From NCBI GenBank assembly GCA_039683575.1, contig JBDKRC010000231.1, positions 1 through 19,602 on the forward strand: DNA of 19,602 nt. The letters run 5' to 3'. Positions 1,699 through 17,143 of this stretch are shown here, one piece after another. A program made the translations under genes and the position numbers. Position 1 is the stretch's first letter. Every line of letters begins with the position of its first letter. Under the pieces are notes generated by a model, which saw only the letters and a program-made list of their open reading frames with translations, was not told the origin of the DNA and did not search any database. Source of the stretch: Armatimonadia bacterium. Lineage in GTDB: Bacteria > Armatimonadota > Zipacnadia > Zipacnadales > UBA11051.

Positions 1699-4600
1699 CT
1701 ATTCCACCGCCCGGATCACCCGTAACCCATAGGCCGGTATCTCCAGTTCGCTGCCGGAGAGCGTCTTACCTGTAACCGGGTCGCAAAATGATGTCTGACG
1801 CCAGCCTTGCGGCAGCGCTACAACCGGCTTGACCGGCTCGTTCTTGAAGTTCAGCAGCAGCACCAGCCGGTCCTTCCCAAGCTGGAAGGCGAACCAATCG
1901 TTCTGCGGCAGGCCGTCCACCTTGACCTCGGCGTCGCAGCGCTGCCCTTTGCTGAGGATCTCCTCGTAGCGGGCGAGCACGGCAGCGGCTTCTGAGGTGT
2001 AGTAGAAGGCCCCGCCGTCCATCACCGGCAGCCACCAGATGAGCACGCCCACGCCGCCGCTGTCCAGACACTGACGCAGCAGGCGGTTGCGCCACGTCAG
2101 CGGGTTCGGGGCGGCGCTATCGGCGCTGGTGTTGGAGAGGTAGTACATCTCGCCACCCATGAACGGTACAGGTGCGAGTGCTTTCACCGTCTCCTGCACC
2201 GCCCCGCGGGCTCCCCCATATCCGGCGATGCCAAGGTCCAGGTACGCGGCCATGAGCTTCCAGTCCACCCCGTAGTGCTCCATGGTATATTTGCCCTGGG
2301 TGCCGCTGTAGACCGAGAACTCAATGCCGGGGCAGCCGCGGCGCACGCCAATGCCGATATGCTCGACCAGACGCGCATTTTGGCCACAGCGGAACGCGGT
2401 CCACTTGTCGCGGTATTCTTTCGTCATCATTTCCGGCGTCAGCTTCGTATCGTCCGGAAGGCCTGCTTCCCTGGCGAACGCCGCAAGACAGCGCTGGCAG
2501 AAGCAGTACGTGGGCGGGTCGATGACCGGGTCCTCCACATCAATGTCGGCTCCCTGGTACTTGCCGTTGCGCACCTTCGCGGCCATGTCGTCTTCCAGCG
2601 CCTTGAGCACCTCCGGCGCCTCGCTTAGCATCCACGTCGGGCACAGCGTGTCCCGGCTGGGCTTGTTGGGGTACTCAACCGCCGCGACTTCGGGCCGGTC
2701 GGTCAGTAGATCACGGAAGGCCGCCGGAGGGGCGAAGGGCGAGTAGCCGAGGCTGATGATGCTCTCATGGGTGCCACGCTGGCGCAGTTGCCGCACGACC
2801 TCATTATCCGCCGAGCCGTAGTTAGCGATCATCCCGGAGCGCCAGAAGTTGTCTGCCAGCGCCGCCAGCACCTGCGGGTTGGAGAACTGCTCGCTGTAGT
2901 AGCACGGGGTGATCTTGATGTGCCTGGGGCGTACGCCGAGCAGTGGTGGCAGGACCTCGATCGCCACCGGCTGGGCCACCTCGGTGATGTTCCCGCCGCC
3001 GGTCTCGAAGTACACCAGCATCTGATCGGAGCCCTGAGGCGCTTTCTTGTCCACGCTGAAGAGCAGCGACCCCATGGGCTTGTAGGTGCCCGAGACCAGG
3101 TTCTCCGCCTTTGCGTCCATCTCGATGATGTACTCGACACCCGGCTCGACATTCACGACCGGCTTTTTGGGGATCCAGAGCGCGTTCTGCCCTTTGACCT
3201 GCTCCGGCAGGCAGACGATCTTCAGGCCCTTGGTGCCGCTATTGCCATAGCCGGGCTTGATGCGGCCGTCGGCCCACTCCGGCCCCTCGAAGTCGCCCAC
3301 CTTCAGCAGGTCCTCAGTACTGCCCTTGCGCCGCACAGTGATGTTGTCTACCCAGAAGGTGCCGGTGATGTCGCGGTCCTGCCACTTGATGACCAGCGGA
3401 TGTAACTGACCGGCGTCGCTCGGAGCCTTGAAGGTTCCTGACAGCCGTCGCCAGTCAAACGTTCCACCGGCTTGCAGCCCCGGCTGATAGCCAATCGTCC
3501 CGCCGTCCTTGGACACCCATCGCAACGACAGTTCCAGGCCCCTGCCCGGCAATAGGGGGTACTGGGCGCCATAGACGCTCTGTCCGGGGGCGACCTGCTG
3601 CCGCGTGACTTCCGCTGGCTGGGCTCCCTCGGTGGGTTCAGCGGTTACGTAGCGCAGGTAGTCCGGCACCTGCATGCAGAGCCGGTATCCCTCGGCAGGC
3701 AGGCCCGTCGGCAGCGTCAGGTACGGCTTGACGCGCTGGCTCGTGCCGACCGGGAGCCACAACTTGTTGGTCAGCGGAAAGAGGCGCCCAGCCGGAGATG
3801 AGACCCACAGGCCCCGGCGGTAGTATGCGGTGCCATCTGGGGTCTGAAGCTGCCCCTTCACCGCCGGCGCAGGCGCAAAGCCGGGGACATACTCGGTCTG
3901 CCACGCGGCAGGCGGCTCCTTACTCAGACAGAACCAGCGCGCGTCCGCCGCTATCTTCTGCCGTCCAATTGTGATTTCAGGCTTGACCCAACCACGGCCC
4001 TTAGTAATGAGGGTCACGAGGTTGAGGCCATCATGCAGCTCCAGCGGTCCAGCAGCCACAGGCTTGCCATCGAGGAAGGCCTGGCACTGCACCCCTGGCG
4101 CCTGCGACAGGGCGAATTCCCCGCGGCTGATAGCGAGGCTCTCCGTCTGCCGTGGGGAGGACGCATAGACCACGTTCCCGGCCCGTAGCGCCCATTCATA
4201 CCCCAGTTGCCCCGCTTGCACCGCCTCCGGCGGCACCAGGAACTCCGCTTCTACCCCGCGCTGCCCTGGCGTGAGACTTGCAGGCAACGTCTTCTGGCCG
4301 AGTTTCTTCGCGCCAGCATACAGGTCCAGTGCGCACTCCAGGCCAGCGGCTGGGGCTGGTGACGAAACCTCCAGAACCACGCGCCTGCGGTCCGGGGTGG
4401 GGGCTGTGATCTCCGCTGAGTGGACGACAGGCCCAGATTCGGCGAAGACGACGCGTCCGAACTGCGCGCGGTCATTGAAGGCGCCCTGCAACCCCGACCA
4501 GGTCGAGTTCTCCGCCACGGCACTGCGCTCGCGGCAGAACTGCCCCCGCCATGAACTGGCGGGAAGCTTGCCTGCGCCGAGGCTGCTCAGCGGTATCGCA

Positions 4601-5106
4601 CACTCGACGATGTAGCGGTCGTCGCGCCGCACCGCTGCCGCCCGCCACTCGCCGTTCCAGCCTACCTCGCCGTCGCGGGCTTCCCAGCGTGTACCGATGG
4701 AGTTGGCCGCAAGCTGGAATGACGATCCCCCCGGCACGTCGAGGAATATTTCCACACAGTCGTCGCTGAAGACATTGCTGTCGTGGTCCTTGCGCTCGGC
4801 CTTCACCTTGTCGGTCTGCTGGACCATGGGCTGCAAGAACCTGTCAAAGCACTCGAAGGCCACATACAGATTGTTGTCATCCCACGTAAGATAGGCGTTC
4901 GTGCGTGCATCCAGCTTGTTGCCAGAAGCCGGCAAGAACGGGCCGCAGACGGTGGCCTGCTGCCAGCACGGCTCCTGGAGCGCGCCGTCAAGTACCGGCG
5001 GGGCCGCGGCGCGGTAGGCCGTCACCAGCGCTGCGCCCCACGCTCCACTGACAATTCCAGTTGTCAAAGCGAGAAGAACCGAGAAGAACAAGATCCGACG
5101 CAACAT
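1699..5106 (-). CDS. Secreted multidomain putative glycoside hydrolase (~1135 aa): CBM9/DOMON-like domain, beta-sandwiches, CBM4/9-like module and C-terminal TIM-barrel catalytic domain
   Basis: Signal peptide MLRRILFFSVLLALTTGIVSGAWGA. CBM9-like motifs PVLDGAL.E..W, WDDNNLYVAF, DDCVEIFLD, YIVECAIP. Barrel region has GADIDVE and a YCFCQRC Cys motif like GH42-type enzymes. ATG 5106 has GAGGTG upstream; the ORF-track GTG 5115 falls within that RBS. Confidence 0.75.
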   Translation of the reverse strand: MLRRILFFSVLLALTTGIVSGAWGAALVTAYRAAAPPVLDGALQEPCWQQATVCGPFLPASGNKLDARTNAYLTWDDNNLYVAFECFDRFLQPMVQQTDKVKAERKDHDSNVFSDDCVEIFLDVPGGSSFQLAANSIGTRWEARDGEVGWNGEWRAAAVRRDDRYIVECAIPLSSLGAGKLPASSWRGQFCRERSAVAENSTWSGLQGAFNDRAQFGRVVFAESGPVVHSAEITAPTPDRRRVVLEVSSPAPAAGLECALDLYAGAKKLGQKTLPASLTPGQRGVEAEFLVPPEAVQAGQLGYEWALRAGNVVYASSPRQTESLAISRGEFALSQAPGVQCQAFLDGKPVAAGPLELHDGLNLVTLITKGRGWVKPEITIGRQKIAADARWFCLSKEPPAAWQTEYVPGFAPAPAVKGQLQTPDGTAYYRRGLWVSSPAGRLFPLTNKLWLPVGTSQRVKPYLTLPTGLPAEGYRLCMQVPDYLRYVTAEPTEGAQPAEVTRQQVAPGQSVYGAQYPLLPGRGLELSLRWVSKDGGTIGYQPGLQAGGTFDWRRLSGTFKAPSDAGQLHPLVIKWQDRDITGTFWVDNITVRRKGSTEDLLKVGDFEGPEWADGRIKPGYGNSGTKGLKIVCLPEQVKGQNALWIPKKPVVNVEPGVEYIIEMDAKAENLVSGTYKPMGSLLFSVDKKAPQGSDQMLVYFETGGGNITEVAQPVAIEVLPPLLGVRPRHIKITPCYYSEQFSNPQVLAALADNFWRSGMIANYGSADNEVVRQLRQRGTHESIISLGYSPFAPPAAFRDLLTDRPEVAAVEYPNKPSRDTLCPTWMLSEAPEVLKALEDDMAAKVRNGKYQGADIDVEDPVIDPPTYCFCQRCLAAFAREAGLPDDTKLTPEMMTKEYRDKWTAFRCGQNARLVEHIGIGVRRGCPGIEFSVYSGTQGKYTMEHYGVDWKLMAAYLDLGIAGYGGARGAVQETVKALAPVPFMGGEMYYLSNTSADSAAPNPLTWRNRLLRQCLDSGGVGVLIWWLPVMDGGAFYYTSEAAAVLARYEEILSKGQRCDAEVKVDGLPQNDWFAFQLGKDRLVLLLNFKNEPVKPVVALPQGWRQTSFCDPVTGKTLSGSELEIPAYGLRVIRAVE

Positions 5107-5141
5107 TTTCTGCACCTCAGGTGTCAGTCTGCCGCGTGTAC

Positions 5142-5168
5142 TTGACCACGAGGCCTCTCCGCACCTGC
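5142..5168 (-). promoter_or_regulatory. sigmaH-like promoter for gene 1699-5106
   Basis: Minus strand GCAGGT-N17-TCAA; the same motif and spacing recur at the other divergent regions. Confidence 0.5.
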
Positions 5169-5178
5169 CCGCGCCTGA

Positions 5179-5205
5179 GAAGGGATTAGTTACGTGCGGG
5201 TTGAA
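5179..5205 (+). promoter_or_regulatory. sigmaH-like promoter for the secretin operon
   Basis: GAAGGG(5179-5184)-N17-TGAA(5202-5205). Confidence 0.5.
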
Positions 5206-5294
5206 CTGTCTAGTTTGTCCTTTGTAGGCGCGAGTCCTTTTGACATTCCGCCGGGTTGCTGTCTCAACGTCGTCAGATGTGGAGAAACGCCCTC

Positions 5295-6668
5295 ATGCGA
5301 ATTGCCCGCCTCGTCGTGATCCTACTGGGCCTGTGCCTGCCGCTCCTGGCACAGAATGCCGACACCGCGCCTCCGCCGTCGCGCACGCCTGCTACCAGCG
5401 CTGAAAAGCCCGCTGACGCCCCCAAGGCCGACACGCCCGCGGCGACAAAAAACGGCGAGTCCGGCAAGGAGAATGGCAAGAGCGACAGCAAAGAACCCAC
5501 GCACATCCTCAACATCGTGGCTTCCCCCAAGGGCTGGACCATTCATGCGGTGAATGCCGATGCCCACGAGCTCTTCACCCAGTTTGCCGCGGCAGCGCAT
5601 CTGCCGCTCGTGGTTGACGACACCGTCAAACGCAAGATCACCCTCCACATCTCCGACAAGTCAGAATGCGACATCCTGAGCATCATCGTTGATGCCTACG
5701 GCTTCTCATGGGCGCAGGTGGAGGGCGTCCACATCGTCTCGGACGGCATGCCGAAGACTGCTTCCTCCTACCTTCTCTCCGACATCGCCTCCGTTACCAC
5801 CAAGTACGTGGCCCCCGACCGTGCCCAGCAACTCCTGCCGCTGTTCCTGCAGCAACATGTGAAGGTGAACACAGACCAGAACGCGGTGGTCCTGTGCGGC
5901 CCCAAGCCGATGCTGGAGAAGTTCAGGCAGGATGTGGAGCAGTTCGATGTCGCCGCCGCGCAGATCATGCTCGATGTGAACGTTATCGAGTTCACTGATG
6001 TGGATACAGATGTGTTCGCGGCCCTGATCGGCCACAGTAACGCCAACTTCGGCGCCGTCACGGACTCGCTGACGGGGCAGGTCACGCTCACCGCCGTTGC
6101 GGATCTGCCGACCTTGTTCTTCTCGGAGCTTCGGGCGCTGGTCACCAAGCGTCAGGCCCGCGTCCGGGCCAATCCCCGCATCGCTACCGTCAGCGGCCAA
6201 TCCGCCAACATCTTCATCGGGCAGCAGCAGTATCTGACCGTTCCGCTGAACACTGGGGCCAACTCCATTGATGCCGGCGTTTCCCTCACAATGACACCCC
6301 TCACTGGCGGCGGCGGTGAGATCATCCTGGACCTGCGCGAGGAGATCAGCACCCTTAGCGCCCCAGACCCGACCACCGGCCTGCCCACCAAAACAAGCCG
6401 CACCGGCCAGAGCACCGTCCGGGTACGTGATGGGCAGACCATCATCATGGGTGGACTGCGGCAGGTGGAGTCCCGCGAGGTCCGCCGGGCCATCCCGATC
6501 CTCAGCGAAATCCCGCTCCTCGGCAAGTTCTTCCGCTCCAACCGTACCGAAAAGACCGCGGTAGACCTGGCGATCTTCATCACGGCCCGCACGCTTTCGC
6601 AGACGGGCCACCTGCCAGCCGAGGAAGAGCAGAAGGCGCGGGAGATGATCGAGGGAGTCAACCGTTGA
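5295..6668 (+). CDS. Secretin-family outer-membrane protein, paralog 1 (457 aa): signal peptide, low-complexity linker, N0/STN, N3 and secretin domains
   Basis: QIMLDVNVIE, ARVRANPRIATVSGQSANIFIG, STVRVRDGQTIIMGGL and IPILSEIPLLGKFFRS are GspD/PilQ secretin-domain signatures. ATG 5295 has GGAGA 9 nt upstream. Confidence 0.93.
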   Translation: MRIARLVVILLGLCLPLLAQNADTAPPPSRTPATSAEKPADAPKADTPAATKNGESGKENGKSDSKEPTHILNIVASPKGWTIHAVNADAHELFTQFAAAAHLPLVVDDTVKRKITLHISDKSECDILSIIVDAYGFSWAQVEGVHIVSDGMPKTASSYLLSDIASVTTKYVAPDRAQQLLPLFLQQHVKVNTDQNAVVLCGPKPMLEKFRQDVEQFDVAAAQIMLDVNVIEFTDVDTDVFAALIGHSNANFGAVTDSLTGQVTLTAVADLPTLFFSELRALVTKRQARVRANPRIATVSGQSANIFIGQQQYLTVPLNTGANSIDAGVSLTMTPLTGGGGEIILDLREEISTLSAPDPTTGLPTKTSRTGQSTVRVRDGQTIIMGGLRQVESREVRRAIPILSEIPLLGKFFRSNRTEKTAVDLAIFITARTLSQTGHLPAEEEQKAREMIEGVNR

Positions 6669-8407
6669 GTTGCAGCCGCCTGGAGACGATGGTGCTGACC
6701 ACGCTGCTTCTGGCCGCCACGACATGCTGGGCGGAGACGCAGCCCTTTTGCATGCTGCAGAAGGTGGACGTGGGCCAGGTCTCAAACGCGACGGTCATTA
6801 CGCTCGAAGCTGACGGGCTCATTGAGATGACCACCGAAGGGCTTGAGACCTGGACGCAGGACGAACAGCACAACTGGTATCCGCAGGCCCTGGAGCGCAT
6901 CACGTTCACTCTCAGGAACGTGCGCGGCGGAGCCGCTCCGATGGTACAGATCGCGCGCTACCCCGTGAGCCACATTGAATTCGCTCTGCCACCGGGGGAA
7001 CAGCAGAACGTCGGTGTACGATGCACCCTGGTGCTGTACAAAGGCGCCATCGTCACCAAGTTCGATGGCGTCGACGACAACTGGGATTTTGGCTCGTGGC
7101 GCCCCGCGGGCCCGCGTGTGATGATCTACCCGTCACAGAAGCGCGACAAAATCCTGATCACCGTAATCAGCGACCGGCCGGAGGAGCCGGAGGCCAAACG
7201 TCCCGACGAGCCCCGCCAGGAACCGCGCCTCGAGGTGTCTGGAGACACCAAGGCAGTCACCCTGAAGGCCTTCAAGGCCGATATGCACCAAGTCATCAAG
7301 ATGATTGGCGAACAGACAGGTGCTCCAATATGGGTAGACGAGCCGGTGAGCAATCTGGTCACCGCCAACTTCGAGAAGATGCCGCTGCAACGCCTGCTGA
7401 CCAGTCTCGCCACCGCCTACGGTCTCTGTCTTTCCCAGATGGGCCAGGACTATCATCTGAGCCAGACACGGCCCGACAGTGCGACCGCGTACTGGGTGGG
7501 AGAGACACGGATGGTGCAACTGCACTATGTTCCCGTCCAGCAGGCGCTGCTGCTCCTGCCGGATGCGGTGCTGCCGTACGTGCACCGCATGGAGGCCAAC
7601 AACAGCCTCATCCTCAGCGGCCCGCGGCAGATGCTGGATCGCATCGCTTCCGACCTGGCCGTAATCGACAAGCCTGGTTACCAGTGCCGACTGCGCGCAT
7701 GGGTTATCGGCACCCAGAGCACTGACCAGAGCCTGCGGGAAGTGCTCGGGGGATTTGCGGATGGTGACACCAGTGTTGGCTTCGACAGCAGCGGCAACCT
7801 CAGCGTCGAGACGGGCTCCGCCGTTGCTGAGAAGTTGCTGGTGCGACTTCAGGCGCTCCAGACCAAGGGGCGGCTGCGTATGCAGTCCCTGCCCTCTGTC
7901 TGGTGCAAGAGCGGCTACTCGGCCAGTCTGTTCATGGGCCAGCGCATCTACTACTGGCGCTTCGCGAGTATCTGGTCCGAGGAACAGACTCTCGATGCCG
8001 CCCAGGCGGGAACGGAACTGACTTTCTATCCTCGCACCGACGGTGAATGGATTACCGCCTGGGTGACGGTGCAGAGCGATGTCCCGGGGCAGGCCAGCCC
8101 CACCGGTCCCGTGCTCATGCGGCGCTCGGCGAAGACAACTGTCAGGCTGCGCTCGGGGCAGATGATGCTGATTGGTGGCCTGCTGCAGTCCGATAGTCTC
8201 CGCCACCGCGCCAAGCCGACCATGCTGCCCTGGCCGGCCGATGCACTCGCCTCGGGACGACTGCGAATACGTCAGGATGGCGAGGTGGCGGTGCTGGTGC
8301 AGATGGAGGCGGCGCTGATGCCACCGACTGAATCGCCTGACAAGCTGCAGCAGCCCGCGCTGCAGACCGGACAGCTTGTCTCACCCGATTTCAACGAAGG
8401 ATCGTGA
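6665..8407 (+). CDS. Divergent secretin-family protein, paralog 2 (580 aa): AMIN-like, N0, N3 and a degenerate secretin domain
   Basis: LQALQTKGRLRMQSLPSV, SASLFMG and TTVRLRSGQMMLIGGLL align with paralogs 1 and 3. TTG start overlaps the paralog 1 stop (TTGA), with GAGGGAG 7 nt upstream. Confidence 0.85.
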   Translation: MSCSRLETMVLTTLLLAATTCWAETQPFCMLQKVDVGQVSNATVITLEADGLIEMTTEGLETWTQDEQHNWYPQALERITFTLRNVRGGAAPMVQIARYPVSHIEFALPPGEQQNVGVRCTLVLYKGAIVTKFDGVDDNWDFGSWRPAGPRVMIYPSQKRDKILITVISDRPEEPEAKRPDEPRQEPRLEVSGDTKAVTLKAFKADMHQVIKMIGEQTGAPIWVDEPVSNLVTANFEKMPLQRLLTSLATAYGLCLSQMGQDYHLSQTRPDSATAYWVGETRMVQLHYVPVQQALLLLPDAVLPYVHRMEANNSLILSGPRQMLDRIASDLAVIDKPGYQCRLRAWVIGTQSTDQSLREVLGGFADGDTSVGFDSSGNLSVETGSAVAEKLLVRLQALQTKGRLRMQSLPSVWCKSGYSASLFMGQRIYYWRFASIWSEEQTLDAAQAGTELTFYPRTDGEWITAWVTVQSDVPGQASPTGPVLMRRSAKTTVRLRSGQMMLIGGLLQSDSLRHRAKPTMLPWPADALASGRLRIRQDGEVAVLVQMEAALMPPTESPDKLQQPALQTGQLVSPDFNEGS

Positions 8408-8409
8408 CT

Positions 8410-10107
8410 ATGGCCAATCATCGGCTGCTTTTCGCCCTCCTCGTCCTGATCATACTGGCGCTCACGGCCGCCCCGGCGCAGGAAGCATACTGCTACCTGC
8501 GCGAGGTGAAGGTGACGGCGCTCAGCAACGGCGTTCAGATTGAGGTCAAGGCCGACGGGATTCTGAGCTGGGACTGGGAGGAGTGGGAGGGCTCACGCTA
8601 TGGGGAGGTAACTTCGGCTACCTTCCGCTTCCCGACCGCCAGGTTAGGCCTGGACAAGACGCTCTATGATGTCGAGCAAGCTCCGGTGAACACCGTCAGC
8701 CTTGCTGTGCCTCAAAATGCCCGGGGCGGCGTCGGGGTGAGCATGACGGTGAACATGAGCGAGGGCGCGCGCGTACAGCCTGACCTCAGCGAGGACCGGC
8801 AGACTTTCCTGCTCACTGTGCATGGCTCCCGCACCGTCGAGCGCGAGACCAAGAACGGCGAAGAGAGCAAGTCGAAGGACAACCACGAGGGGGAACTAAG
8901 CGTCAAGCCGCTGAAGGATGGAACGCTGGCTGTCCGTGCTACCAAAGCCGACCTGCACGAGGTTGTGGCTGAGGTCGCCAAGCTGGGCGGGATCAGCGTC
9001 GCCGTGGATGACGCCGTCCAGCGCAAAGTCAGCCTGAACCTCGACGGCCGCGAGTCGCTCGGGGTCATCAAGAGCATCGCGGTCGCCTACGGTCTCGCCC
9101 TGTCCTGCGTCGGCGACGTCTACATGCTCAGCGAGGGCGTTCCCACCGACCTGCCCAGCTACCGGCGCAGTGCCACGGCTTCTTTTCCCACGCGCTACAT
9201 GAAAGCCAAGGATGCCACCACGCTGCTGCCGACGTTCCTGTTCAAGTACCTCCACGACAACCCGGAGCAGAACGCGGTAGTAGTGACGGCGCCCTCGCAG
9301 ATGCTGGATAAGATCCGCAGCGACCTGGTCGCCATTGACGTGCCCCCACCGATGATCCTGGTTGAGTGCGTCGTCTGCGAGTTGACCGACACCTCCGATC
9401 TCGACACCCAATTCCGGTGGCTGTACCAGAGCCAGGAGCACGAGTACGGCGCCAACAGCGGCACTGGAGACTTGGTCGGGCAGTCACAGGAAATGGCGGG
9501 CGGCCTGGCCTCCGCCATCGCCCCCGCCCCGATCCTGCAGGCCTGGCTCAAGGCCCTGCAGACGCGCGGGAAGGCGGAAGTCAACGCTCACCCCTCAATG
9601 GCCGCTGTGAATGGCAAGCAGGCCGAGATTTTCATCGGCTCCCAGCGGTTCATCAAGGTAACATACTACCGCGGCGGTCAGCTTCAGGAGCGCATCGATA
9701 CCGTGCCGGTGGGCATCCGTCTCCGCGTCCGGCCCTGGACCGGCGGCAATCAGGAGATCACAACCAACCTGCACGTGGAAGTGTCCAACATCGTCGAACT
9801 CGATCCGCAGACGGGTGTGCCGCGACTCAGCACCCGTGAAGCCACGTCCACTCTCCGCACCCGCGATGGCGATGTGATCGTCATCGGCGGGCTATCGCAG
9901 CGTCAGCAAGAGAAGACCTGGCGGCGGGTGCCCATCCTCGGCAGTCTCCCGATCATCGGCCCGCTCTTCCGCAGCCGCGCCAGCGGCAGCAACAACACCG
10001 AACTGGTCATCCTCATTCGCCCGCGCCTGCTCGATGAAAACGGCCGGCTGCCCGCTGATGAGGACGGGGCGCTGCGCGAAAAGTTCCTGTCGGGCGAACA
10101 GAAGTAG
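8410..10107 (+). CDS. Secretin-family outer-membrane protein, paralog 3 (565 aa): AMIN-like, N0, N3 and secretin domains
   Basis: LKALQTRGKAEVNAHP, NGKQAEIFIG, STLRTRDGDVIVIGGL, VPILGSLPIIGPLFRS, TELVILIRPRLL. ATG 8410 has AAGGA 8 nt upstream; alternative GTG 8404 overlaps the paralog 2 stop. Confidence 0.93.
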   Translation: MANHRLLFALLVLIILALTAAPAQEAYCYLREVKVTALSNGVQIEVKADGILSWDWEEWEGSRYGEVTSATFRFPTARLGLDKTLYDVEQAPVNTVSLAVPQNARGGVGVSMTVNMSEGARVQPDLSEDRQTFLLTVHGSRTVERETKNGEESKSKDNHEGELSVKPLKDGTLAVRATKADLHEVVAEVAKLGGISVAVDDAVQRKVSLNLDGRESLGVIKSIAVAYGLALSCVGDVYMLSEGVPTDLPSYRRSATASFPTRYMKAKDATTLLPTFLFKYLHDNPEQNAVVVTAPSQMLDKIRSDLVAIDVPPPMILVECVVCELTDTSDLDTQFRWLYQSQEHEYGANSGTGDLVGQSQEMAGGLASAIAPAPILQAWLKALQTRGKAEVNAHPSMAAVNGKQAEIFIGSQRFIKVTYYRGGQLQERIDTVPVGIRLRVRPWTGGNQEITTNLHVEVSNIVELDPQTGVPRLSTREATSTLRTRDGDVIVIGGLSQRQQEKTWRRVPILGSLPIIGPLFRSRASGSNNTELVILIRPRLLDENGRLPADEDGALREKFLSGEQK

Positions 10108-10125
10108 TTGCCGCCCGGGAAGACC

Positions 10126-10157
10126 GAAATGGCCCCGGATTGCTCCGGGGCCATTTC
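10126..10157. terminator. Probable bidirectional terminator closing the secretin operon and the convergent hydrolase gene
   Basis: Perfect 14-bp stem GAAATGGCCCCGGA / TCCGGGGCCATTTC with a 4-nt loop (TTGC, read as GCAA GNRA tetraloop on the minus strand). Confidence 0.85.
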
Positions 10158-10182
10158 TGCTCGTACTCGCTCTGTTTCAGGT

Positions 10183-12267
10183 TCAGGGATAGTCGAACGT
10201 CATCACCAGGTCAGCAACCCCATTCTGCACCCCTCGCATCCGCACCGCCCGCCACAGCGCCTCGCCCACGTCATAGCTATTCGCCGCGCCAAATTGCAGC
10301 GCATTGCGACCCGCCGGAGACTCTGTCACGAACTTCCCCGGCGCGTCCAGCACCAGCTTATCATCCACAAACACCTTCATATCCTGCCCTCTGATCGCGA
10401 TCCGGTAGGTGTGGAAGGCATCCGTGGTGTCCATGGCATACTTCAGCGCCCCCAGGCTCAGCCCGTCAGGCTTGAGGTACAGCCGCTCCAGAGCGATCCC
10501 GTTGCTGAACATCACGCTGCTCAGACCGGACACTACCTTTGCCTCCAACTCCGCCACCGTCTCGCGCTCCGGTTCGGCATTCCACGCGTAGGTGTAGTAG
10601 AGGTAATCGCCCACCTGTGTGCCGCGGTCGGCCACGAGCAGCGCCCCCTCCCGCACCTCCGCCAACGTTCGCGCCCCAGGCTTGTCGCTGCCCCACGGCA
10701 GGGCGGGTTTCTTGTCGCCCGTCCAGGTCACATCCCAATCGTCCTCCCCGGCCTGCGGATCAGCCCCTGTGATCTCGACCTCGTTCCGCCCTGGCCGTAT
10801 CATCTTCGCTGCTACCTGATATTGCCACCAGCCCGCTACCGCCTTCGGCGCGGCCAGGTCCTGCCCATTCAGCCGCACCTGCGGGGCTTTGCTGCCCGTG
10901 GTGAGCAGGTTCAGCCGGATGTCCGCCATCACGGCTGCCTCGGTCGTCTCTCCAAGCATCAGCGGCACCGTCACCGTCTTGCCCGCAGGCAGCGTCAGTG
11001 GCTCGTCGGGTGTCAGCACCGGCACGTTCTGGAAGCGCTTGCCGTCCGCCAGTGACATGTTCGCTGAGTAGTTCCGCACCGTCGCAAAGTACGTCTTGTC
11101 CAGCTTCGCCAACTCCGACGGATCGCCCATTTCCCGCAGCAGCGGCGATTTCGCGGCGAAGAAGTTGAACGTGTAGACCCCGTCGGCCCCGCTCTGCCAG
11201 ATCCGCGCCGCCCTTGCCCGGTAGCTCTCCTGGGATTGGCGCCGGTATGGCGGCCCTTCCGCGCGTACCCGGCTCTCGCTCAGGCACGGGTACACCGGGA
11301 CGTCGTACTTGTGCCCAAGCTGCACGAGGTACTCCCACGGGTGGAGCTGGAAATAGCAGGTTCCCACCAGCACATCCACCAGCCCCTCCTTCAGCCACCG
11401 CTCGATGTCCAGGCCCACTGCCCGCGAGTACTCAACGGAATCCGGCACGCGAACCGCGATCAGGATCGGCCGCCCGCGCTTGCGCCCCTCGGCGTCGGCC
11501 ATCGTCCGCACGCGCCGCAACAGGTCGGTCATCATGTCAAGCTCAGCCTGGCTCGCCGTGCCGCCGTATGCCACCGACTTGAAGTAGCAAAGATGCCGCC
11601 AGAAGTCCAGTTCGATGCCATCCACGTCGTAGTTCTGGCAGACTTCCTCGAGGTACTTGAAGGCCAGGTCCCGCACTTCCGGCCGCCCATAGTCCACCGC
11701 GCTCCACTGCCCGTACTTGGGCTTGTTCTCAAGCGAGCCGATCAGGTACTCCGGGTGCCGTGCCTTCAGCGGCGGGAACAGTGGGTACGGCTTGTCCGGG
11801 CTGTGTGCCCCGTCGTGGGTGTCATTCATCCGCATCGAAAAGAAGACTTCGATGTTGTTGGCATGGCCATAGTCCACGATCATCTTCAGCGCGTCAGTAC
11901 CCATGTCAATGAGCTCTCGCGCGATATTCCTGCTCCCGAAGATGGGGTGGTCCAGCACCGTGCCCGCCTTGGTGTTGTGGGTGAAGTAGCTGAAACCGGA
12001 ACTGATGGGGCAGTAGAAGATTGTGTCCACCTGCGAGCCGAGCAGCGGCGAGGTCCGCTGGGCCAGAACATTCTCGACCGTCACCGGCAGGTCTTTGGGG
12101 TAGTAGATCACCTCGTTGCCATCGTTGTTGAGGATGATCCGTCGCTTGCGGTGCGCCAGTTCCCGGCGCTGCTGCGCGAAGTTATCCTGCGACCAGCCTT
12201 CCGCCGCGAGGCCGAGAACCACAGTAGTCAGCATGGCGAGGTGAAGTAGGTTGTTCATGCCCGTCAT
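10183..12267 (-). CDS. Secreted putative glycoside hydrolase (GHL10-like TIM barrel) with C-terminal beta-sandwich and ConA/lectin-like domain
   Basis: Signal peptide. RRIILNNDG, FFSMRMNDTH, DYGRPEVRD, YDVDGIELDFWR and GADGVYTFN fit the GHL10-like family. C-terminal DTTDAFHTYRI...KVFVD and LQFGA are ConA-like. Start may instead be ATG 12258. Confidence 0.75.
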   Translation of the reverse strand: MTGMNNLLHLAMLTTVVLGLAAEGWSQDNFAQQRRELAHRKRRIILNNDGNEVIYYPKDLPVTVENVLAQRTSPLLGSQVDTIFYCPISSGFSYFTHNTKAGTVLDHPIFGSRNIARELIDMGTDALKMIVDYGHANNIEVFFSMRMNDTHDGAHSPDKPYPLFPPLKARHPEYLIGSLENKPKYGQWSAVDYGRPEVRDLAFKYLEEVCQNYDVDGIELDFWRHLCYFKSVAYGGTASQAELDMMTDLLRRVRTMADAEGRKRGRPILIAVRVPDSVEYSRAVGLDIERWLKEGLVDVLVGTCYFQLHPWEYLVQLGHKYDVPVYPCLSESRVRAEGPPYRRQSQESYRARAARIWQSGADGVYTFNFFAAKSPLLREMGDPSELAKLDKTYFATVRNYSANMSLADGKRFQNVPVLTPDEPLTLPAGKTVTVPLMLGETTEAAVMADIRLNLLTTGSKAPQVRLNGQDLAAPKAVAGWWQYQVAAKMIRPGRNEVEITGADPQAGEDDWDVTWTGDKKPALPWGSDKPGARTLAEVREGALLVADRGTQVGDYLYYTYAWNAEPERETVAELEAKVVSGLSSVMFSNGIALERLYLKPDGLSLGALKYAMDTTDAFHTYRIAIRGQDMKVFVDDKLVLDAPGKFVTESPAGRNALQFGAANSYDVGEALWRAVRMRGVQNGVADLVMTFDYP

Positions 12268-12293: not shown

Positions 12294-12308
12294 CGGGCGT
12301 CAGTGAGC

Positions 12309-12335
12309 GCAGGAGTATTGCGCCGCGAAATGGAA
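12309..12335 (+). promoter_or_regulatory. sigmaH-like promoter for URO-D-like gene
   Basis: GCAGGA(12309-12314)-N17-GGAA(12332-12335). Confidence 0.55.
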
Positions 12336-12380
12336 GCTCTAGATGAGGCTGTCAGCCATCCCGCCACGGAGGAGCGCGCC

Positions 12381-13334
12381 ATGCCTGACGATCGCGTGAA
12401 AGCAATGACCTTCGACTACCCGGAGCACATTCCGGTCGTTGTCAGCCTGCTTCCCGCGGCCTGGATCAAGTACCGCGAGGCGCTCGAAGAGATCGTCCGC
12501 AGGCACCCGATCATCTTCGGCCAGCCGGGCGAACAGCCGCGTGACTATGACTACGTCCCCGAGACCTACGCATCCGGGGAACATGTGGACATCTGGGGCT
12601 GCGTCTGGAGCAACATCAGGCATGGCGCAGAGTCCATCGTCACCGGCCACCCCGTCCCCACTCGCGCCGACGTGCACAGGCTCAAGGCTCCGGCCCCTGG
12701 CTGCGGTTTCAAGCATGGCTTCATGTGGCTGCTGCTCTCGGACCTGCGGGGTTTTGAGGAGTTGATGGTGGACTTCGCCGAGGAGCCACCGGAACTGCAG
12801 ATGCTGATAGATGTTGTCCTGGAGTACAACTGCGGCGAGACCGCCCGCCTGCTTGAGAGCAAGCCGACGATGATGCACTTTGGCGACGACCTCGGCATGC
12901 AGGACCGGCTGGCGATAGGCGAGTACAAGTGGCGCAAGTATCTCAAGCCCTGCTATGCGCGGATGTACGGGATGTGCCATGACGCAGGCGCGAACGTCTA
13001 CATGCACACCGACGGGCACATCATTCCGATCATCAAGGACCTGATCGAGTGCGGCGTGAACGTCATTAACCCTCAGATCCGTGCCAACGGCCTTGAGTAC
13101 CTCGCGCGTGAATGCCGGGGCAAGGTCTGCGTCAGCCTCGACCTCGACCGCCAGCTTTTTCCGTTCGCCACTCCGGCCCAGATTGATGAGCATATCCGCG
13201 AGGCGGTCGACGTCCTGGGCCTGCCCGAGGGCGGTCTATGGCTGATCGCGGAGTGCGGGCCCGACGTCCCCCTCGAAAACATCGAAGCCATCTGCCAGAG
13301 TCTGGAGAAGTATCGCGACTATCACCGCCGCTAG
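12381..13334 (+). CDS. Uroporphyrinogen decarboxylase / MtaA-CmuA methyltransferase-fold protein (317 aa)
   Basis: VDIWGCVW, LRGFEELMVDF, HFGDDLGMQ, YMHTDGHI, DLIECGVNVINPQ, LDLDRQ, PDVPLENIEA. ATG 12381 has GGAGGAG 6 nt upstream. Confidence 0.88.
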   Translation: MPDDRVKAMTFDYPEHIPVVVSLLPAAWIKYREALEEIVRRHPIIFGQPGEQPRDYDYVPETYASGEHVDIWGCVWSNIRHGAESIVTGHPVPTRADVHRLKAPAPGCGFKHGFMWLLLSDLRGFEELMVDFAEEPPELQMLIDVVLEYNCGETARLLESKPTMMHFGDDLGMQDRLAIGEYKWRKYLKPCYARMYGMCHDAGANVYMHTDGHIIPIIKDLIECGVNVINPQIRANGLEYLARECRGKVCVSLDLDRQLFPFATPAQIDEHIREAVDVLGLPEGGLWLIAECGPDVPLENIEAICQSLEKYRDYHRR

Positions 13335-13570: not shown

Positions 13571-13594
13571 GGACGGACCACGGTCCGTCCCTAC
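13571..13594 (-). repeat. GTAG-type REP-like element overlapping a stop codon
   Basis: Minus strand GTAG-GGACGGACC-GT-GGTCCGTCC; its TAG is the stop codon of gene 13591-16002. Confidence 0.55.
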
Positions 13595-16002
13595 CGCTCA
13601 ATCACAGCCATCTCACCTTCGGCCAGTCCCAGCCGCACCAGCCGCTTACCCTTCTCAACCCGCTCCTCGCCCCGCTTCTCCGTCTCCTTACCAGCCGCAT
13701 CATACCAGTACACCTTCACGGGCTTGGTGTCCCCGAACGTGAACGTCCCCGGCACCGCGGTGACGATCCGCTCTTTGCCCACCAGCCAGCCTCCGTGAAG
13801 TTCAACGGGCGTGAACGGGAACATGTGCTGCGTGATCGTTGGGTACGGCTGCCTGGGCGTGGCGTAGTAGTAGTACAGGGACCCCCAGATCAACTTCTGC
13901 CGGATGTCGTTGACCAGCGACGGGAAGTCTTTCACCGTCAGGTGGTCGCCCAGCGAGATCGGCGTGTATAGATGCGACCGCGCTGGATACCATCCCGCGG
14001 CAGTCTCCACGAAGCGCGGGAAGTGCAGCTTGGTCATGGTGTCGCTGGTCGCCACCGAGTTGCCGATGAGCAGGCCGCCCTTGTCGAAGATGTACTTGAT
14101 TAGCTCCACCTTGGCAGACAGCGACAGCAGGTGCACAAACGACCGCTGCCGCTTGATCCGGTACTGGTCATCAAGCTCCACGGAGTACCCATCCCAACGG
14201 TCATATGTATAGGGCGTCGAAATCCAGTCCAGTTCATCCCAATACACCCCATCCGCCCCGATCTTGTCCTTGTCGAGAACCATGTCGATGACTCGCTTCA
14301 TCGCCGCCACGTACGAGTTCTCCGGGTTCAGCGCCGGGTAGTTGTACAGGAACGGGATGCCGCACGACTTTGTGTAGCCCTCGTTCTCGTACTGCTTCCC
14401 GTCTTCGGTCGTGATCTGCGCGTCCGGGTGCTTCCGCGGGCCGTCCGGGTCAGTGTTGATGTATCCGTGGATGTACACCAGGCTCTTCACCTGTGGGATC
14501 GCCCGCCTGATCGCTGCACACTGCTCCCGCAGCTTCTGCTGCATCGCCGTCGCCTGCAGCATGTGTTCGCCATGGTAGCACTTCACGTCACCCTTTGGGT
14601 CCATCCACACGCCCGAGGACATGAACCGCAGGCCCCGCTGCTCGGCAATCTCTTTGTATGCCTCGTCACTGGCTGCGCCCAGCCCGAACTGAAAGCCCCC
14701 TGGGATGGTGAAGTTCACGCCCAGATCCCGCCGAGCGAGGTTGATGAAGTCATAGTAATCGGGGCGAAGCACCGGGTAGAGCGACCACCGCAGCGTATAT
14801 GAGGCCTTGGGCGCCAGCGCGAAACTGTTGCTGCGGGCGCCTGCGCCCTTCTCATAGTACAGTGCGCCCTGAATCCGGTACACGTCGTCCACCACCAGCA
14901 GCCCACACCCGCTCTGATCGCCGCTTACGAAGACGGTCGAGTTCTCCAGCCTCTCGACTAGCTTGTTCGCCGGGTCGGGATTGCCACCGAGCCACGCCTC
15001 GGAGATATCCCCCTCCGTCGCCCCAACGTGGTTGTCAAACGCCAGCCCAATCGCCTCGCCCGTCAGGTTCGTCAGGCGATCCTCAACCTCCACATGGTCG
15101 CCAACCATCCGCACCCGCCGCTGCAATGTGTATTCCTTCGCCTGCCCCTCCACCGTCGCCCCGTCGCGCTGGGGTCGCACTTTCACCTTCCACTCAGGCT
15201 GGCCCGCCGCTTCCCTGGCGTCGAGGACGTTGAACCCGCCGCCCTGATATGAGAACCGCGACGTGACCTGTAGCCCCATACCCGGCAGCGTGATCTTCAT
15301 ACCGCCGCCCGGCTGCACCGTCACGACCTTCCGCGCCTCCGCGGTCGCCGGCGGCTGCACCATCAGCCGGTCCGCGCTGAAGGTCTCGGTCTTCAGCTTC
15401 CTTACGCCGGCCGCCGGTTCGTCGGAGAACTCGACTGCCAACTGTTCGAGCACGAAGTCCAGCGACGGCTTGGTCTCCGGGAAGTAGGTCCGCAGCCGCA
15501 TGCCCTCTCCCAGATGCTCGAGCAGCAGCACATTCTCCGTTCCCCGCTTCACCAGGTCGGTCACGTTCAGTTCCAGCCGGTAGGGCGATACCTCGACGAT
15601 CCGGTTTCCGCCAGCCTCCTCGGCTCCCGCCATGCGGAAATCGGGGGCGTACACCACCCGCCATGACGTGTCGCGTACCCACGGCAACTCCAGCCCGCTG
15701 GCCATTCGCGCCGTCATCGGCTTATTGAGCAGGCGCATGTTCGTCCGGTCGAGCGCGCCTGTGATCGGCTCCCCGTTCACCCTCATCCGCAGCGCATGCG
15801 TCGAGCCGCTCGTCTCCGGCGAGTCCATGCGGATGGACACCAGCAACCTTGCTGACCGGTACGTATCCGGCGCCTTGAAGTGGTATTCGCCCGTCTTCCC
15901 GTACTCCACTCGCGACTGTGGCGGTGCCAACGTCAACGTCTCGGCACTCACCACCTGCACAGCCATTGCCGCAACCATGACCACCAATAGTCTTCTCATC
16001 AT
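13591..16002 (-). CDS. Secreted hypothetical protein, probable glycoside hydrolase (~803 aa): beta-sandwich and supersandwich N-terminal domains plus TIM barrel
   Basis: Signal peptide MMRRLLVVMVAAMAVQVVSA. VTDLVKRGTENVL-type sandwich. YTLRWSLYP...DYYDFIN..R domain junction. KSLVYIH and IGADGVYWDE barrel motifs. GAGGTG RBS supports ATG 16002. Confidence 0.7.
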   Translation of the reverse strand: MMRRLLVVMVAAMAVQVVSAETLTLAPPQSRVEYGKTGEYHFKAPDTYRSARLLVSIRMDSPETSGSTHALRMRVNGEPITGALDRTNMRLLNKPMTARMASGLELPWVRDTSWRVVYAPDFRMAGAEEAGGNRIVEVSPYRLELNVTDLVKRGTENVLLLEHLGEGMRLRTYFPETKPSLDFVLEQLAVEFSDEPAAGVRKLKTETFSADRLMVQPPATAEARKVVTVQPGGGMKITLPGMGLQVTSRFSYQGGGFNVLDAREAAGQPEWKVKVRPQRDGATVEGQAKEYTLQRRVRMVGDHVEVEDRLTNLTGEAIGLAFDNHVGATEGDISEAWLGGNPDPANKLVERLENSTVFVSGDQSGCGLLVVDDVYRIQGALYYEKGAGARSNSFALAPKASYTLRWSLYPVLRPDYYDFINLARRDLGVNFTIPGGFQFGLGAASDEAYKEIAEQRGLRFMSSGVWMDPKGDVKCYHGEHMLQATAMQQKLREQCAAIRRAIPQVKSLVYIHGYINTDPDGPRKHPDAQITTEDGKQYENEGYTKSCGIPFLYNYPALNPENSYVAAMKRVIDMVLDKDKIGADGVYWDELDWISTPYTYDRWDGYSVELDDQYRIKRQRSFVHLLSLSAKVELIKYIFDKGGLLIGNSVATSDTMTKLHFPRFVETAAGWYPARSHLYTPISLGDHLTVKDFPSLVNDIRQKLIWGSLYYYYATPRQPYPTITQHMFPFTPVELHGGWLVGKERIVTAVPGTFTFGDTKPVKVYWYDAAGKETEKRGEERVEKGKRLVRLGLAEGEMAVIER

Positions 16003-16065
16003 CAAACTCACCTCGAAAGCTCGCCATTACCTCAGGCCCTGATTCCTGATCGCTGAGACCTGCCT

Positions 16066-17052
16066 CTACACTGGTCCGCCGGGGCAGTACTTGCCCGCCG
16101 CCGCTATCGCGGCCTCCATATTGCGCTCTGGCGTCCCGCGCCCGGGGTATAGCTGTACCCGCCAGCAGCCGCTGTCCACCAGCACCTTGACCCGCTCGTC
16201 AATCTGCGCCGGAGACAGCTCCAGCATCTCCTGCGGGATAAGTTGTGTCCAGAACCTCTCCCCCATGATCTCGTACATATCCTCCAGGCTCACTTCCTTG
16301 CACCCCGCGCCATGGAAGTCAGTAATCCCCACCTCATCCCGCGCGATTCTCAAGTGCTCGGCCCTCAGAAGCTCGCTGTGCATGAACCGCTGCTCGGACT
16401 CTCCGTATAGCCGCTGGTAGCATGGTACCGCGAATTCGCGGTACATGGCTGGCGACAGCAACCCGGAGAAATCGTCGCCAGTATAGCCAAACGAGGTGAA
16501 GGTCCCCCCGCACAGTTCCGCGCCAAACCTCGCGAGGCCCTCTTCGGCATCCATCAGCAGGTCCAGCAGCCGCCGCATCGCCTCGGGCTTCTCATAGAAC
16601 CACATCATCGCCTGCCCCGCGCTCATCTCACACGCGTGACTGGTAATCGCTCCGCCTGCCCCACCAAATCCGACTTGATAGCCCCGTTCGCGGTAGTACT
16701 GCCAGCGCTCATACCGCTTTGCCATCAGCCCCGTGGTCCGCGGATCGCCCATCTTCACATGCTCGAGGTGCTCCGGGTCGGTCACCAGCGGGTGCCGCGT
16801 ATCCAGGTACGGGATCTCATCTTCCTCGGGCTCGATCACCGCCATCCCCAGCATCGAGAGGAAGTCACAGCTTGGCCCCTCGGGCACTGGCTGTATGAAC
16901 CGCCCCACGCCGAAACGTCGCTCGGCATACTCCTTCGCCGCAAGCTGCGCCTCCAGCATGACCGCCGGCGAGCCGTAGTAGTCGTGGTAGGTCACGCCTG
17001 CATACTCGGTGTAGGTCACGTTGCAGAAGGCGATATGCCACTTGGGGTCCAT
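16066..17052 (-). CDS. Divergent uroporphyrinogen decarboxylase / methyltransferase-fold protein (328 aa)
   Basis: FYEKPEAMRRLLD, GDDFSGLLSPAMYREFAVPCYQRLY, RFMHSE, GTPERNMEAAI. ATG 17052 has GAGGAG 7 nt upstream. Confidence 0.82.
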   Translation of the reverse strand: MDPKWHIAFCNVTYTEYAGVTYHDYYGSPAVMLEAQLAAKEYAERRFGVGRFIQPVPEGPSCDFLSMLGMAVIEPEEDEIPYLDTRHPLVTDPEHLEHVKMGDPRTTGLMAKRYERWQYYRERGYQVGFGGAGGAITSHACEMSAGQAMMWFYEKPEAMRRLLDLLMDAEEGLARFGAELCGGTFTSFGYTGDDFSGLLSPAMYREFAVPCYQRLYGESEQRFMHSELLRAEHLRIARDEVGITDFHGAGCKEVSLEDMYEIMGERFWTQLIPQEMLELSPAQIDERVKVLVDSGCWRVQLYPGRGTPERNMEAAIAAAGKYCPGGPV

Positions 17053-17085
17053 GCCCGGGCTCCTCAGGTGAAAGGTGGCGGTAGA

Positions 17086-17112
17086 TTGGTCCTGGGTGTC
17101 TCTGGTTCCTTC
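17086..17112 (-). promoter_or_regulatory. sigmaH-like promoter for gene 16066-17052
   Basis: Minus strand GAAGGA-N17-CCAA(T). Confidence 0.5.
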
Positions 17113-17116
17113 CCCG

Positions 17117-17143
17117 GCAGGGCTTTGCCGCACCTGTGGCGAA
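17117..17143 (+). promoter_or_regulatory. sigmaH-like promoter for the beta-helix gene
   Basis: GCAGGG(17117-17122)-N17-CGAA(17140-17143). Confidence 0.55.

Follow-up and report, generated by a model that had tools for sequence, protein, structure and literature searches.

Three successive secretin genes in an Armatimonadota genome are best explained as one functional unit, an ancient, co-inherited, and tightly coupled operon that is found in many Armatimonadota. The genes lie in what we call the window, the entire 19.6-kb contig C231 of a 6.2-Mb metagenome-assembled genome (MAG) of this phylum (G000; 96% complete, 352 contigs), where open reading frames (ORFs) A, B, and C follow one another on the + strand with no real gap between them (5295-10107). 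With a probability of roughly 0.5, their products make up an interdependent, three-paralog, PilQ-like secretin module that would co-assemble and serve a type IV filament machine encoded elsewhere; co-assembly, stoichiometry, partner machine, and cargo are the parts of this reading that we infer. An earlier note on the same DNA had described three tightly joined secretin genes at this place, and the description holds, as all three proteins exceed the Pfam cutoff for the secretin domain and the junctions overlap or leave 2 nucleotides (nt) as it had said. The genes are as follows.

5295..6668, + strand: secretin A; 457 amino acids (aa) from ATG 5295, with the frame open from TTG 5256
6665..8407, + strand: secretin B, the fast-evolving middle paralog; start at TTG 6665 or ATG 6689
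8404..10107, + strand: secretin C; start at GTG 8404 or ATG 8410

An ordered triplet conserved across the phylum

Species-representative genomes were searched with an alignment of A orthologs, and the best 80 of 121 confirmed relatives supplied 80 loci, labeled Armatimonadota, unclassified "bacterium," or, once, "candidate division WS1." Three consecutive same-strand secretin ORFs stand in 68 of the 80, and at the remaining 12 the contig ends before the second or third gene could fit. The A-B-C order likewise holds in all 16 loci fetched from relatives in the same taxonomic order. Record titles of the carriers name Zipacnadia, Armatimonadia, Chthonomonadales, Fimbriimonadales, Abditibacteriaceae, Hebobacteria, and HR16 and include MAGs named Chthonomonas calidirosea and Abditibacterium; Chthonomonas and Abditibacterium are genera with cultured strains.

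In a FastTree phylogeny of 67 complete triplets and three other secretins of G000, the first, middle, and last genes form one clan each (support 99, 100, and 96, respectively), with long branches in B. Rooting on the Tad-type secretin of contig C44 joins B with C and sets A apart, with weak placement of the outgroups. Because the three clans are position specific, the duplications are older than the split between the sampled Armatimonadota classes, and the local duplication assumed by the earlier note gives way to an ancient one. The conserved, ordered triplet with three orthologous clades for which that note proposed to look is what we recovered, and no relative examined has the triplet inside a type II secretion system (T2SS) or type IV pilus (T4P) cluster. 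Together, the fixed order and the absence of such clusters around it in relatives support functional interdependence of the three genes and keep the idea of a mixed ring alive, which we regard as the best-supported mechanism at about even odds. Our literature searches returned no account of tandem secretin paralogs in Armatimonadota; the available text of a Fimbriimonas genome report counts 4 PulD and 79 PulG genes and does not remark on their arrangement (PMC4072686).

Tight coupling is visible at both junctions. Between A and B, TTG 6665 overlaps the A stop by 4 nt and ATG 6689 would leave a 20-nt gap; between B and C, GTG 8404 overlaps the B stop by 4 nt and ATG 8410 would leave a 2-nt gap. 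Start/stop overlaps of 4 or 1 nt recur at 32 of 67 A-B and 37 of 67 B-C junctions, and at most of the others a candidate start codon lies no more than a few tens of bases away. There is also a hint that the operon is expressed: two metatranscriptome libraries from one wastewater study contain contigs that cover each of the three genes in part, mostly at ≥99% likeness, with one piece (8281-8533) bridging the B-C junction and another (6546-6697) reaching about 30 nt beyond the A stop. Stretches of the operon that these libraries leave uncovered say nothing either way.

Secretins of PilQ-like design

Matches to the Pfam secretin family PF00263 (gathering score, 27.5) reach 118.6 bits in A (6135-6590), 48.9 bits in B (7853-8212), and 129.4 bits in C (9553-10032, the complete domain); the match in B covers profile positions 1-132 of 169 only. 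All three proteins also have a weaker match to Secretin_N, and A and C have a marginal match to the N0 domain. BLASTP aligns A with C at 35% identity (E = 2e-72), B with C at 27% (E = 4e-43), and A with B at 27% (E = 5e-30), and on these alignments the three are clearly old paralogs.

Read from sequence, a plausible Sec signal peptide starts each protein and a lipobox is present in none. In A, a low-complexity linker rich in Pro, Glu, and Lys takes the place of an AMIN domain and is followed by an N0-like domain, one N1-type domain, the secretin domain, and a conserved C-terminal tail, "TGHLP." B continues from its signal peptide into an AMIN-like beta-sandwich (~6749-7168), N0, N1, and the secretin barrel, and C into an AMIN-like domain (~8491-8823), a linker, N0, N1, and the secretin domain. 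AlphaFold2 (AF2) models of B and C (mean predicted local distance difference test score [pLDDT] of 85.3 and 83.1, respectively) agree in the order of a signal helix, a beta-sandwich of ~120 to 140 residues, N0, one N1-type domain, and a full secretin barrel, which in B is predicted to include the last strand. A Foldseek search with the B model placed the competence-pilus PilQ of Vibrio cholerae (6w6m) at the top (E = 3.2e-15) and also matched InvG and GspD; 61 PDB chains match at E ≤ 0.001, and all of those listed are secretins. Residues 24-150 of C match the AMIN domains of PilQ and of cell wall amidases in structure (template modeling score by query, 0.74 to 0.80), and the BLASTP alignment of B with C extends over the AMIN-like domain. 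The Pfam AMIN model itself has no match at E ≤ 0.1 in A, B, or C.

Curated NCBIfam models all fall short of their cutoffs. In the order A, B, and C, the PilQ model TIGR02515 gives 93.5, 41.1, and 103.4 bits (cutoff, 284.35), the GspD model TIGR02517 gives 107.6, 40.1, and 144.6 bits (cutoff, 351.35), and the SctC model TIGR02516 gives 90.0, 40.6, and 94.3 bits (cutoff, 238.45); with the MshL model, all three paralogs are far below the cutoff. TIGR02517 is the best model for A and C, and the PilQ and SctC models are marginally ahead for B. A, B, and C are secretins of PilQ-like design that lie outside any curated equivalog.

With PilQ of the type IVa pilus (T4aP; 6w6m and Pseudomonas aeruginosa 6ve2/6ve4), the triplet has its fold in common, and B and C arrange their domains as PilQ does (AMIN-like, N0, one N1-type, secretin). 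However, PilQ is one gene, whereas here three paralogs share one operon that is not beside pilMNOP; unlike PilQ, A has no AMIN domain and B has no conserved loop motif (described below), and the scores are far below the TIGR02515 cutoff. GspD of the T2SS supplies the best-scoring model for A and C and is represented among the top fold matches of B, and the accessible part of Denise et al. (2019; PMC6668835) assigns a T2SS to Armatimonadetes. Yet GspD has domains N0 to N3, whereas the B and C models have only N0 and one N1-type domain in addition to AMIN-like domains, and the triplet has no gsp operon context.

Decay of the middle paralog

Over 353 shared columns in the 67 loci, mean pairwise ortholog identity reaches 0.56 in A and 0.52 in C and falls to 0.30 in B; measured this way, B evolves about twice as fast as A and C. 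Two motifs were counted in the same loci.

Hydrophobic loop motif (V/I)PxLxxIPxxGxLF, before the last strand: A 54/67, B 8/67, C 59/67
N0 motif VDD(T/A)V: A 59/67, B 5/67, C 49/67

Among the window proteins, the loop motif is present in A and C and degenerate in B, whose N0 motif is degenerate as well. A short helix that is predicted between the last two long strands suggests that the loop motif corresponds to the amphipathic helical loop, described in the part of one study open to us as the most conserved stretch of secretins and as thought to start their association with the outer membrane (PMC6532946). The elements that have decayed in B are those that a secretin needs to act alone. Because some B proteins, among them that of a Chthonomonas MAG (L117_B), retain the loop motif, its loss is progressive rather than ancestral. 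B itself is present in every complete locus.

An accessory module gained and lost as a unit

Among 41 genomes of the same order, 24 hold an A ortholog (E ≤ 1e-60) and the identical 24 hold a strong B match, with C adjoining in those of the carriers that were checked. In the remaining 17, A orthologs and strong B matches are both absent, and none of the 41 genomes was seen to hold an incomplete set. Across the phylum, an A ortholog (E ≤ 1e-90) occurs in 81 of 301 genomes and 49 of 169 genera, and its frequency by family is as high as 14/16 and 9/15 in some families and is 0/24 and 0/39 in others. Genomes G021, G031, G036, and perhaps G026, all members of family f7, each have two whole triplets that differ in type, with A proteins that are about 55 to 57% and 45 to 48% identical to that of the window, so the triplet duplicates or transfers as a unit. 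A in G188, a genome related at the phylum level only, is 70% identical to window A; in the same-family carriers listed, the identity of A is 58 to 59% in two of three and 71% in the other (G004). The identity seen in G188 and the two types of triplet in f7 suggest that the whole module has been transferred within the phylum. We conclude that the module is accessory and is gained, lost, and duplicated as a unit. A comparison of synteny within the genus yielded no definable boundary for a clean insertion or deletion site, the DNA being 71 to 83% identical with gene order not kept.

Gene context and candidate machinery

The triplet stands alone. We searched 1.12 Mb of sequence (96 related loci and the window) by tblastn with queries from G000, namely, five PilB/GspE-type ATPases, four PilT-like ATPases, two CpaF proteins, six platform proteins, TadB/C, and PilM, and found no PilB/GspE, PilT, PilC/GspF, or PilM there; no gspC-M genes lie near the triplet. 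The earlier note had seen no ATPase or platform gene and no TonB-dependent receptor in the window, and here it was right: PF00437 (ATPase), PF00482 (platform), and PF11104 (PilM) have no match on contig C231, PF07596 (pilin-like) has none among the matches listed, and a Pfam scan of nine other window ORFs returned no TonB-dependent receptor. In family f5 only (L039 = G024:C12 1-8306; L041 = G019:C138), a Tad locus (CpaF end, TadB, TadC) lies about 6 kb from the triplet, and this locus and four conserved genes all fall within 0 to 8 kb of it.

The flanks vary from locus to locus. Once antisense shadows of the secretins are set aside, all-against-all BLAST clustering of 4409 ORFs from the window and the 96 loci gives only small, lineage-specific clusters, and no flanking family reaches beyond 8 loci. 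At 6 of the 81 main loci, which are the 80 described above together with the window, a Gfo/Idh/MocA oxidoreductase from a very abundant family adjoins the triplet. Of 20 immediate neighbors at 10 diverse loci, 2 have glycoside-hydrolase domains, and the rest are alpha/beta hydrolases, Gfo/Idh/MocA proteins, TetR, a helicase, and others. Only about 7 distinct loci have DUF1559 genes in their flanks, which is no enrichment given at least 151 copies per genome.

G000 as a whole has 7 secretin-domain matches, 11 T2SSE-family ATPase matches (5 PilB/GspE-type, 4 PilT-like, and 2 CpaF-like), two prepilin peptidases, platform-protein matches on 8 contigs, and at least 151 DUF1559 matches versus 1 TonB-dependent receptor match. 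The ATPase, DUF1559, and receptor counts fit a side remark of the earlier note on pilin-like proteins encoded elsewhere and prove nothing. The ATPases on contigs C38 and C352 sit among unrelated genes, so that scattering of such genes is normal in G000. PilM_2 exceeds its cutoff on C113 only, next to another secretin, and the secretin on C44 adjoins CpaF and TadB/C.

Two other secretin genes of this genome deserve mention. The 589-aa secretin on C120 (L135:2651-9271) is the nontriplet one closest to A, B, and C and shares a same-strand run with three proteins of no clear family (one faintly Fn3-like) and an N-methyl/DUF1559 pilin-like gene; the run is a candidate for the outer part of a T2SS/T4P-like machine. 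C347:12767-14020 (L137:5768-7021) is a stand-alone, shortened secretin-like ORF with a 418-aa open frame that resembles B in a secretin match that goes no further than position 132 of 169 and in the absence of the hydrophobic loop motif.

Two candidate partners for the triplet were tried and rejected. Orthologs of the GspE-like ATPase of C154 (47 to 55% identity) occur in genomes with the triplet (G021, G026, G031, G037, and G039) and in genomes without it (G002, G017, G018, and G032). The Tad secretin RcpA/CpaC occurs with a CpaF/TadA locus, whereas the carriers G004 (95% complete), G006 (96%), G021 (95%), and G026 (91%) have no CpaF match at E ≤ 1e-70, and CpaF is present in many genomes that have no triplet. 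For the C38-, C352-, and C239-type ATPases, orthologs and paralogs lie too near one another in score to be told apart. If there is a PilB/GspE-type partner, it should be one of the two types found in nearly all genomes of the order. Carriers G004, G012, G019, G023, G028, and G033 have two PilB/GspE-type ATPase matches each (E ≤ 1e-60), and G004, G019, and G023 also hold secretin matches beyond the triplet, which speaks against a simple arrangement of one secretin for one machine.

A proposed assembly and its alternatives

Strict co-retention, duplication as a unit, tight junctions, complementary domains, and the decay of B argue that the three products depend on one another, and the simplest form of such dependence would be co-assembly into one outer-membrane complex. 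In the mechanism that we favor, A, B, and C would be exported by way of their Sec signal peptides and would assemble jointly, either as a mixed ring or as a ring built from A and/or C into which B is integrated as a nonautonomous subunit. The AMIN-like domains of B and C would tether the complex to peptidoglycan, and the N0 domains of A and C would face an inner-membrane partner; peptidoglycan binding is the role given to the AMIN domains of T4aP secretins in the excerpted text of one study (PMC10653833). The complex would then act as the outer-membrane conduit of a T4P/T2SS-like machine, with the ATPase, the platform protein, and pilins of the PulG/DUF1559 type encoded elsewhere in these scattered genomes.

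Outer-membrane assemblies from more than one gene product, often with the partner gene adjacent, are represented by PilQ-TsaP (6ve2), BfpB-BfpG (9u5s), RcpA-TadD (8odn), and GspD-pilotin (5zdh). In each of those the partner is a nonsecretin, whereas here all three proteins are secretin paralogs with predicted barrels. A looser parallel is offered by the V-ATPase proteolipid ring, the proteasome, and CCT, rings that gene duplication has made obligate hetero-oligomers. As an analogy only, the triplet would match their pattern of old paralogs, strict co-retention, and one copy that loses features of autonomous assembly.

Several points weigh against this mechanism. To our knowledge, every structurally characterized secretin ring is a homo-oligomer, and our literature searches found no published case of a hetero-oligomeric secretin. 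Linked genes are co-inherited whatever their products do, and fixed order alone does not prove co-assembly. B may form its own ring in some lineages, given its complete predicted barrel and the loop motif kept in 8 of 67 loci. The module was not found in 220 of the 301 phylum genomes searched, nor in any of the three other same-genus genomes (90, 96, and 85% complete), and absence on this scale marks it as dispensable. Neither the C154-type ATPase nor CpaF tracks the triplet among the 41 genomes, and the RNA-library contigs may derive from contaminating DNA. A prediction of the A/B/C complex, made with the N1 and secretin parts and with B as partner, gave 0.13 and 0.11 against a mark of 0.32, without controls, and speaks neither for nor against binding.

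The homomeric record is the natural starting point for a different account: each of the three secretins would make a homo-oligomeric ring of its own, serving a separate type IV filament machine or cargo, and sharing an operon would do no more than co-regulate them. G000 does have several machines with no linked secretin in a genome where scattering is normal, A and C each keep all conserved secretin motifs, and the domain content of the three proteins differs as would be expected of specialized secretins. Independent rings, however, leave unexplained why presence is all-or-none among the 41 genomes, why 68 of 80 loci have the genes together and none shows an intact partial set, and why second copies come as whole triplets. 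The six carriers with only two PilB/GspE-type ATPase matches, three of them with further secretins, also count against this account, as do the start/stop overlap at about half of the junctions and the state of the middle paralog, whose rate of evolution is about double and whose copy of the most conserved secretin motif is gone from 59 of 67 loci. We judge the account unlikely. That same decay has led us to consider B as a pseudosecretin with no pore that serves the A and/or C ring as an assembly or anchoring factor, whether pilotin-like, scaffold-like, or as a periplasmic ring with its AMIN-like domain. The scarcity of the loop and N0 motifs in B (8 and 5 of 67), its identity of 0.30 versus 0.52 to 0.56, and a Pfam match that ends at position 132 of 169 in a protein present in every complete locus would all suit a helper, and TsaP, BfpG, and TadD, by their PDB entry titles, are helpers of known secretins. 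Those helpers are not secretins, though, and a secretin paralog in this role has no precedent. The AF2 model of B has a full barrel that includes the last strand, and solved secretin pores are its best matches. We find a helper role improbable as a separate explanation; it also overlaps the preferred one, since B would still be part of one complex.

The earlier note had placed the triplet in a glycan-catabolism neighborhood, which leads to a third account, a channel for glycan use that exports carbohydrate-active enzymes or slime, or takes up oligosaccharides, with DUF1559-type pilins. The window is indeed rich in carbohydrate-binding and hydrolase-like genes, with CBM9, GHL10, and beta-helix/GH141-like genes flanking the triplet; a GHL10-like gene also adjoins it in one relative (L040), and the single TonB-dependent receptor match of G000 beside its many DUF1559 matches would fit. 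According to the available portion of one paper, PilQ/GspD secretins are needed for the secretion of exopolymeric slime in cyanobacteria and myxobacteria (PMC12475490). The link to glycans is nevertheless not supported when loci are compared: the flanks differ, no carbohydrate gene is conserved as a neighbor, no flanking family of any kind exceeds 8 of the 96 loci, glycoside-hydrolase domains account for 2 of 20 immediate neighbors, and DUF1559 is not enriched. These genomes are so rich in such genes that adjacency is expected by chance, and a dedicated glycan channel is very improbable.

Co-assembly of an interdependent module therefore remains our preferred reading. In its boldest form, the triplet would be the first known obligate hetero-oligomeric secretin, with A, B, and C in fixed alternating positions and a subunit number that is a multiple of three (12 or 15), derived from two ancient duplications followed by the loss of self-sufficiency in B; it could serve the hugely expanded PulG/DUF1559 pilins of bacteria with next to no TonB-dependent receptors, and possibly polymer capture or export. 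We advance this form tentatively, as a possibility. Secretin rings have 12 to 15 subunits according to the part of the cited work available (PMC10653833). With a module inherited as a unit across classes of the phylum and a B subunit that is decaying in features for autonomous membrane insertion, heteromeric secretin rings become a testable question. If such rings exist, models of secretin assembly, of gating, and of symmetry matching with inner-membrane partners would need revision, and the triplet would be a clear bacterial example of the change from homomer to heteromer after duplication. The module also offers a handle on the envelope biology of Armatimonadota, in which pilus and secretion genes are scattered and pilin-like genes number a hundred or more per genome.

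Other features of the locus

The following features border the operon.

5116..5294, no strand assigned: intergenic region between the divergent CBM9 gene (1699-5115, - strand) and A; no sigma-70-like site
10126..10157, no strand assigned: perfect 14-bp inverted repeat with a 4-nt loop, between the stops of C and of the convergent GHL10-like gene (10183-12267, - strand)

The operon promoter presumably lies in 5116..5294. A promoter motif that the earlier note had placed at 5179-5205 was not recovered by a sigma-70 scan of 5050-10300, which found 0 sites and is not made for the promoters of Armatimonadota. The note's 14-bp terminator at 10126-10157 fared better in part, in that the inverted repeat is real and may act as a terminator hairpin in both directions; a T run is missing, and a terminator scan made no call there. 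In a contig of a related strain, in one DNA run, 10108-10186 (the 79 bases between C and the downstream gene, hairpin included) is replaced by 1334 other letters.

Nine other window ORFs include, by Pfam scan, a DegT aminotransferase, the CBM9 and GHL10 genes, two URO-D-like genes, and a beta-helix/GH141-like gene. The two URO-D-like genes (uroporphyrinogen-decarboxylase fold; 12303-13334 and 16066-17133) lie on either side of an 806-aa ORF (13591-16011, - strand) in which Pfam has no match. Such genes also lie near the triplet in two relatives (L044 and L045), probably on account of the abundance of the family. Between the DegT and CBM9 genes, a GC-rich palindrome of ~50 nt (1640-1690) is predicted to form a hairpin of -43.6 kcal/mol. 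It has 30 more BLAST matches in G000, some contigs being hit twice, and dozens of sites in the same-genus genome G002, and it looks like an interspersed repeat of the repetitive extragenic palindromic (REP) kind.

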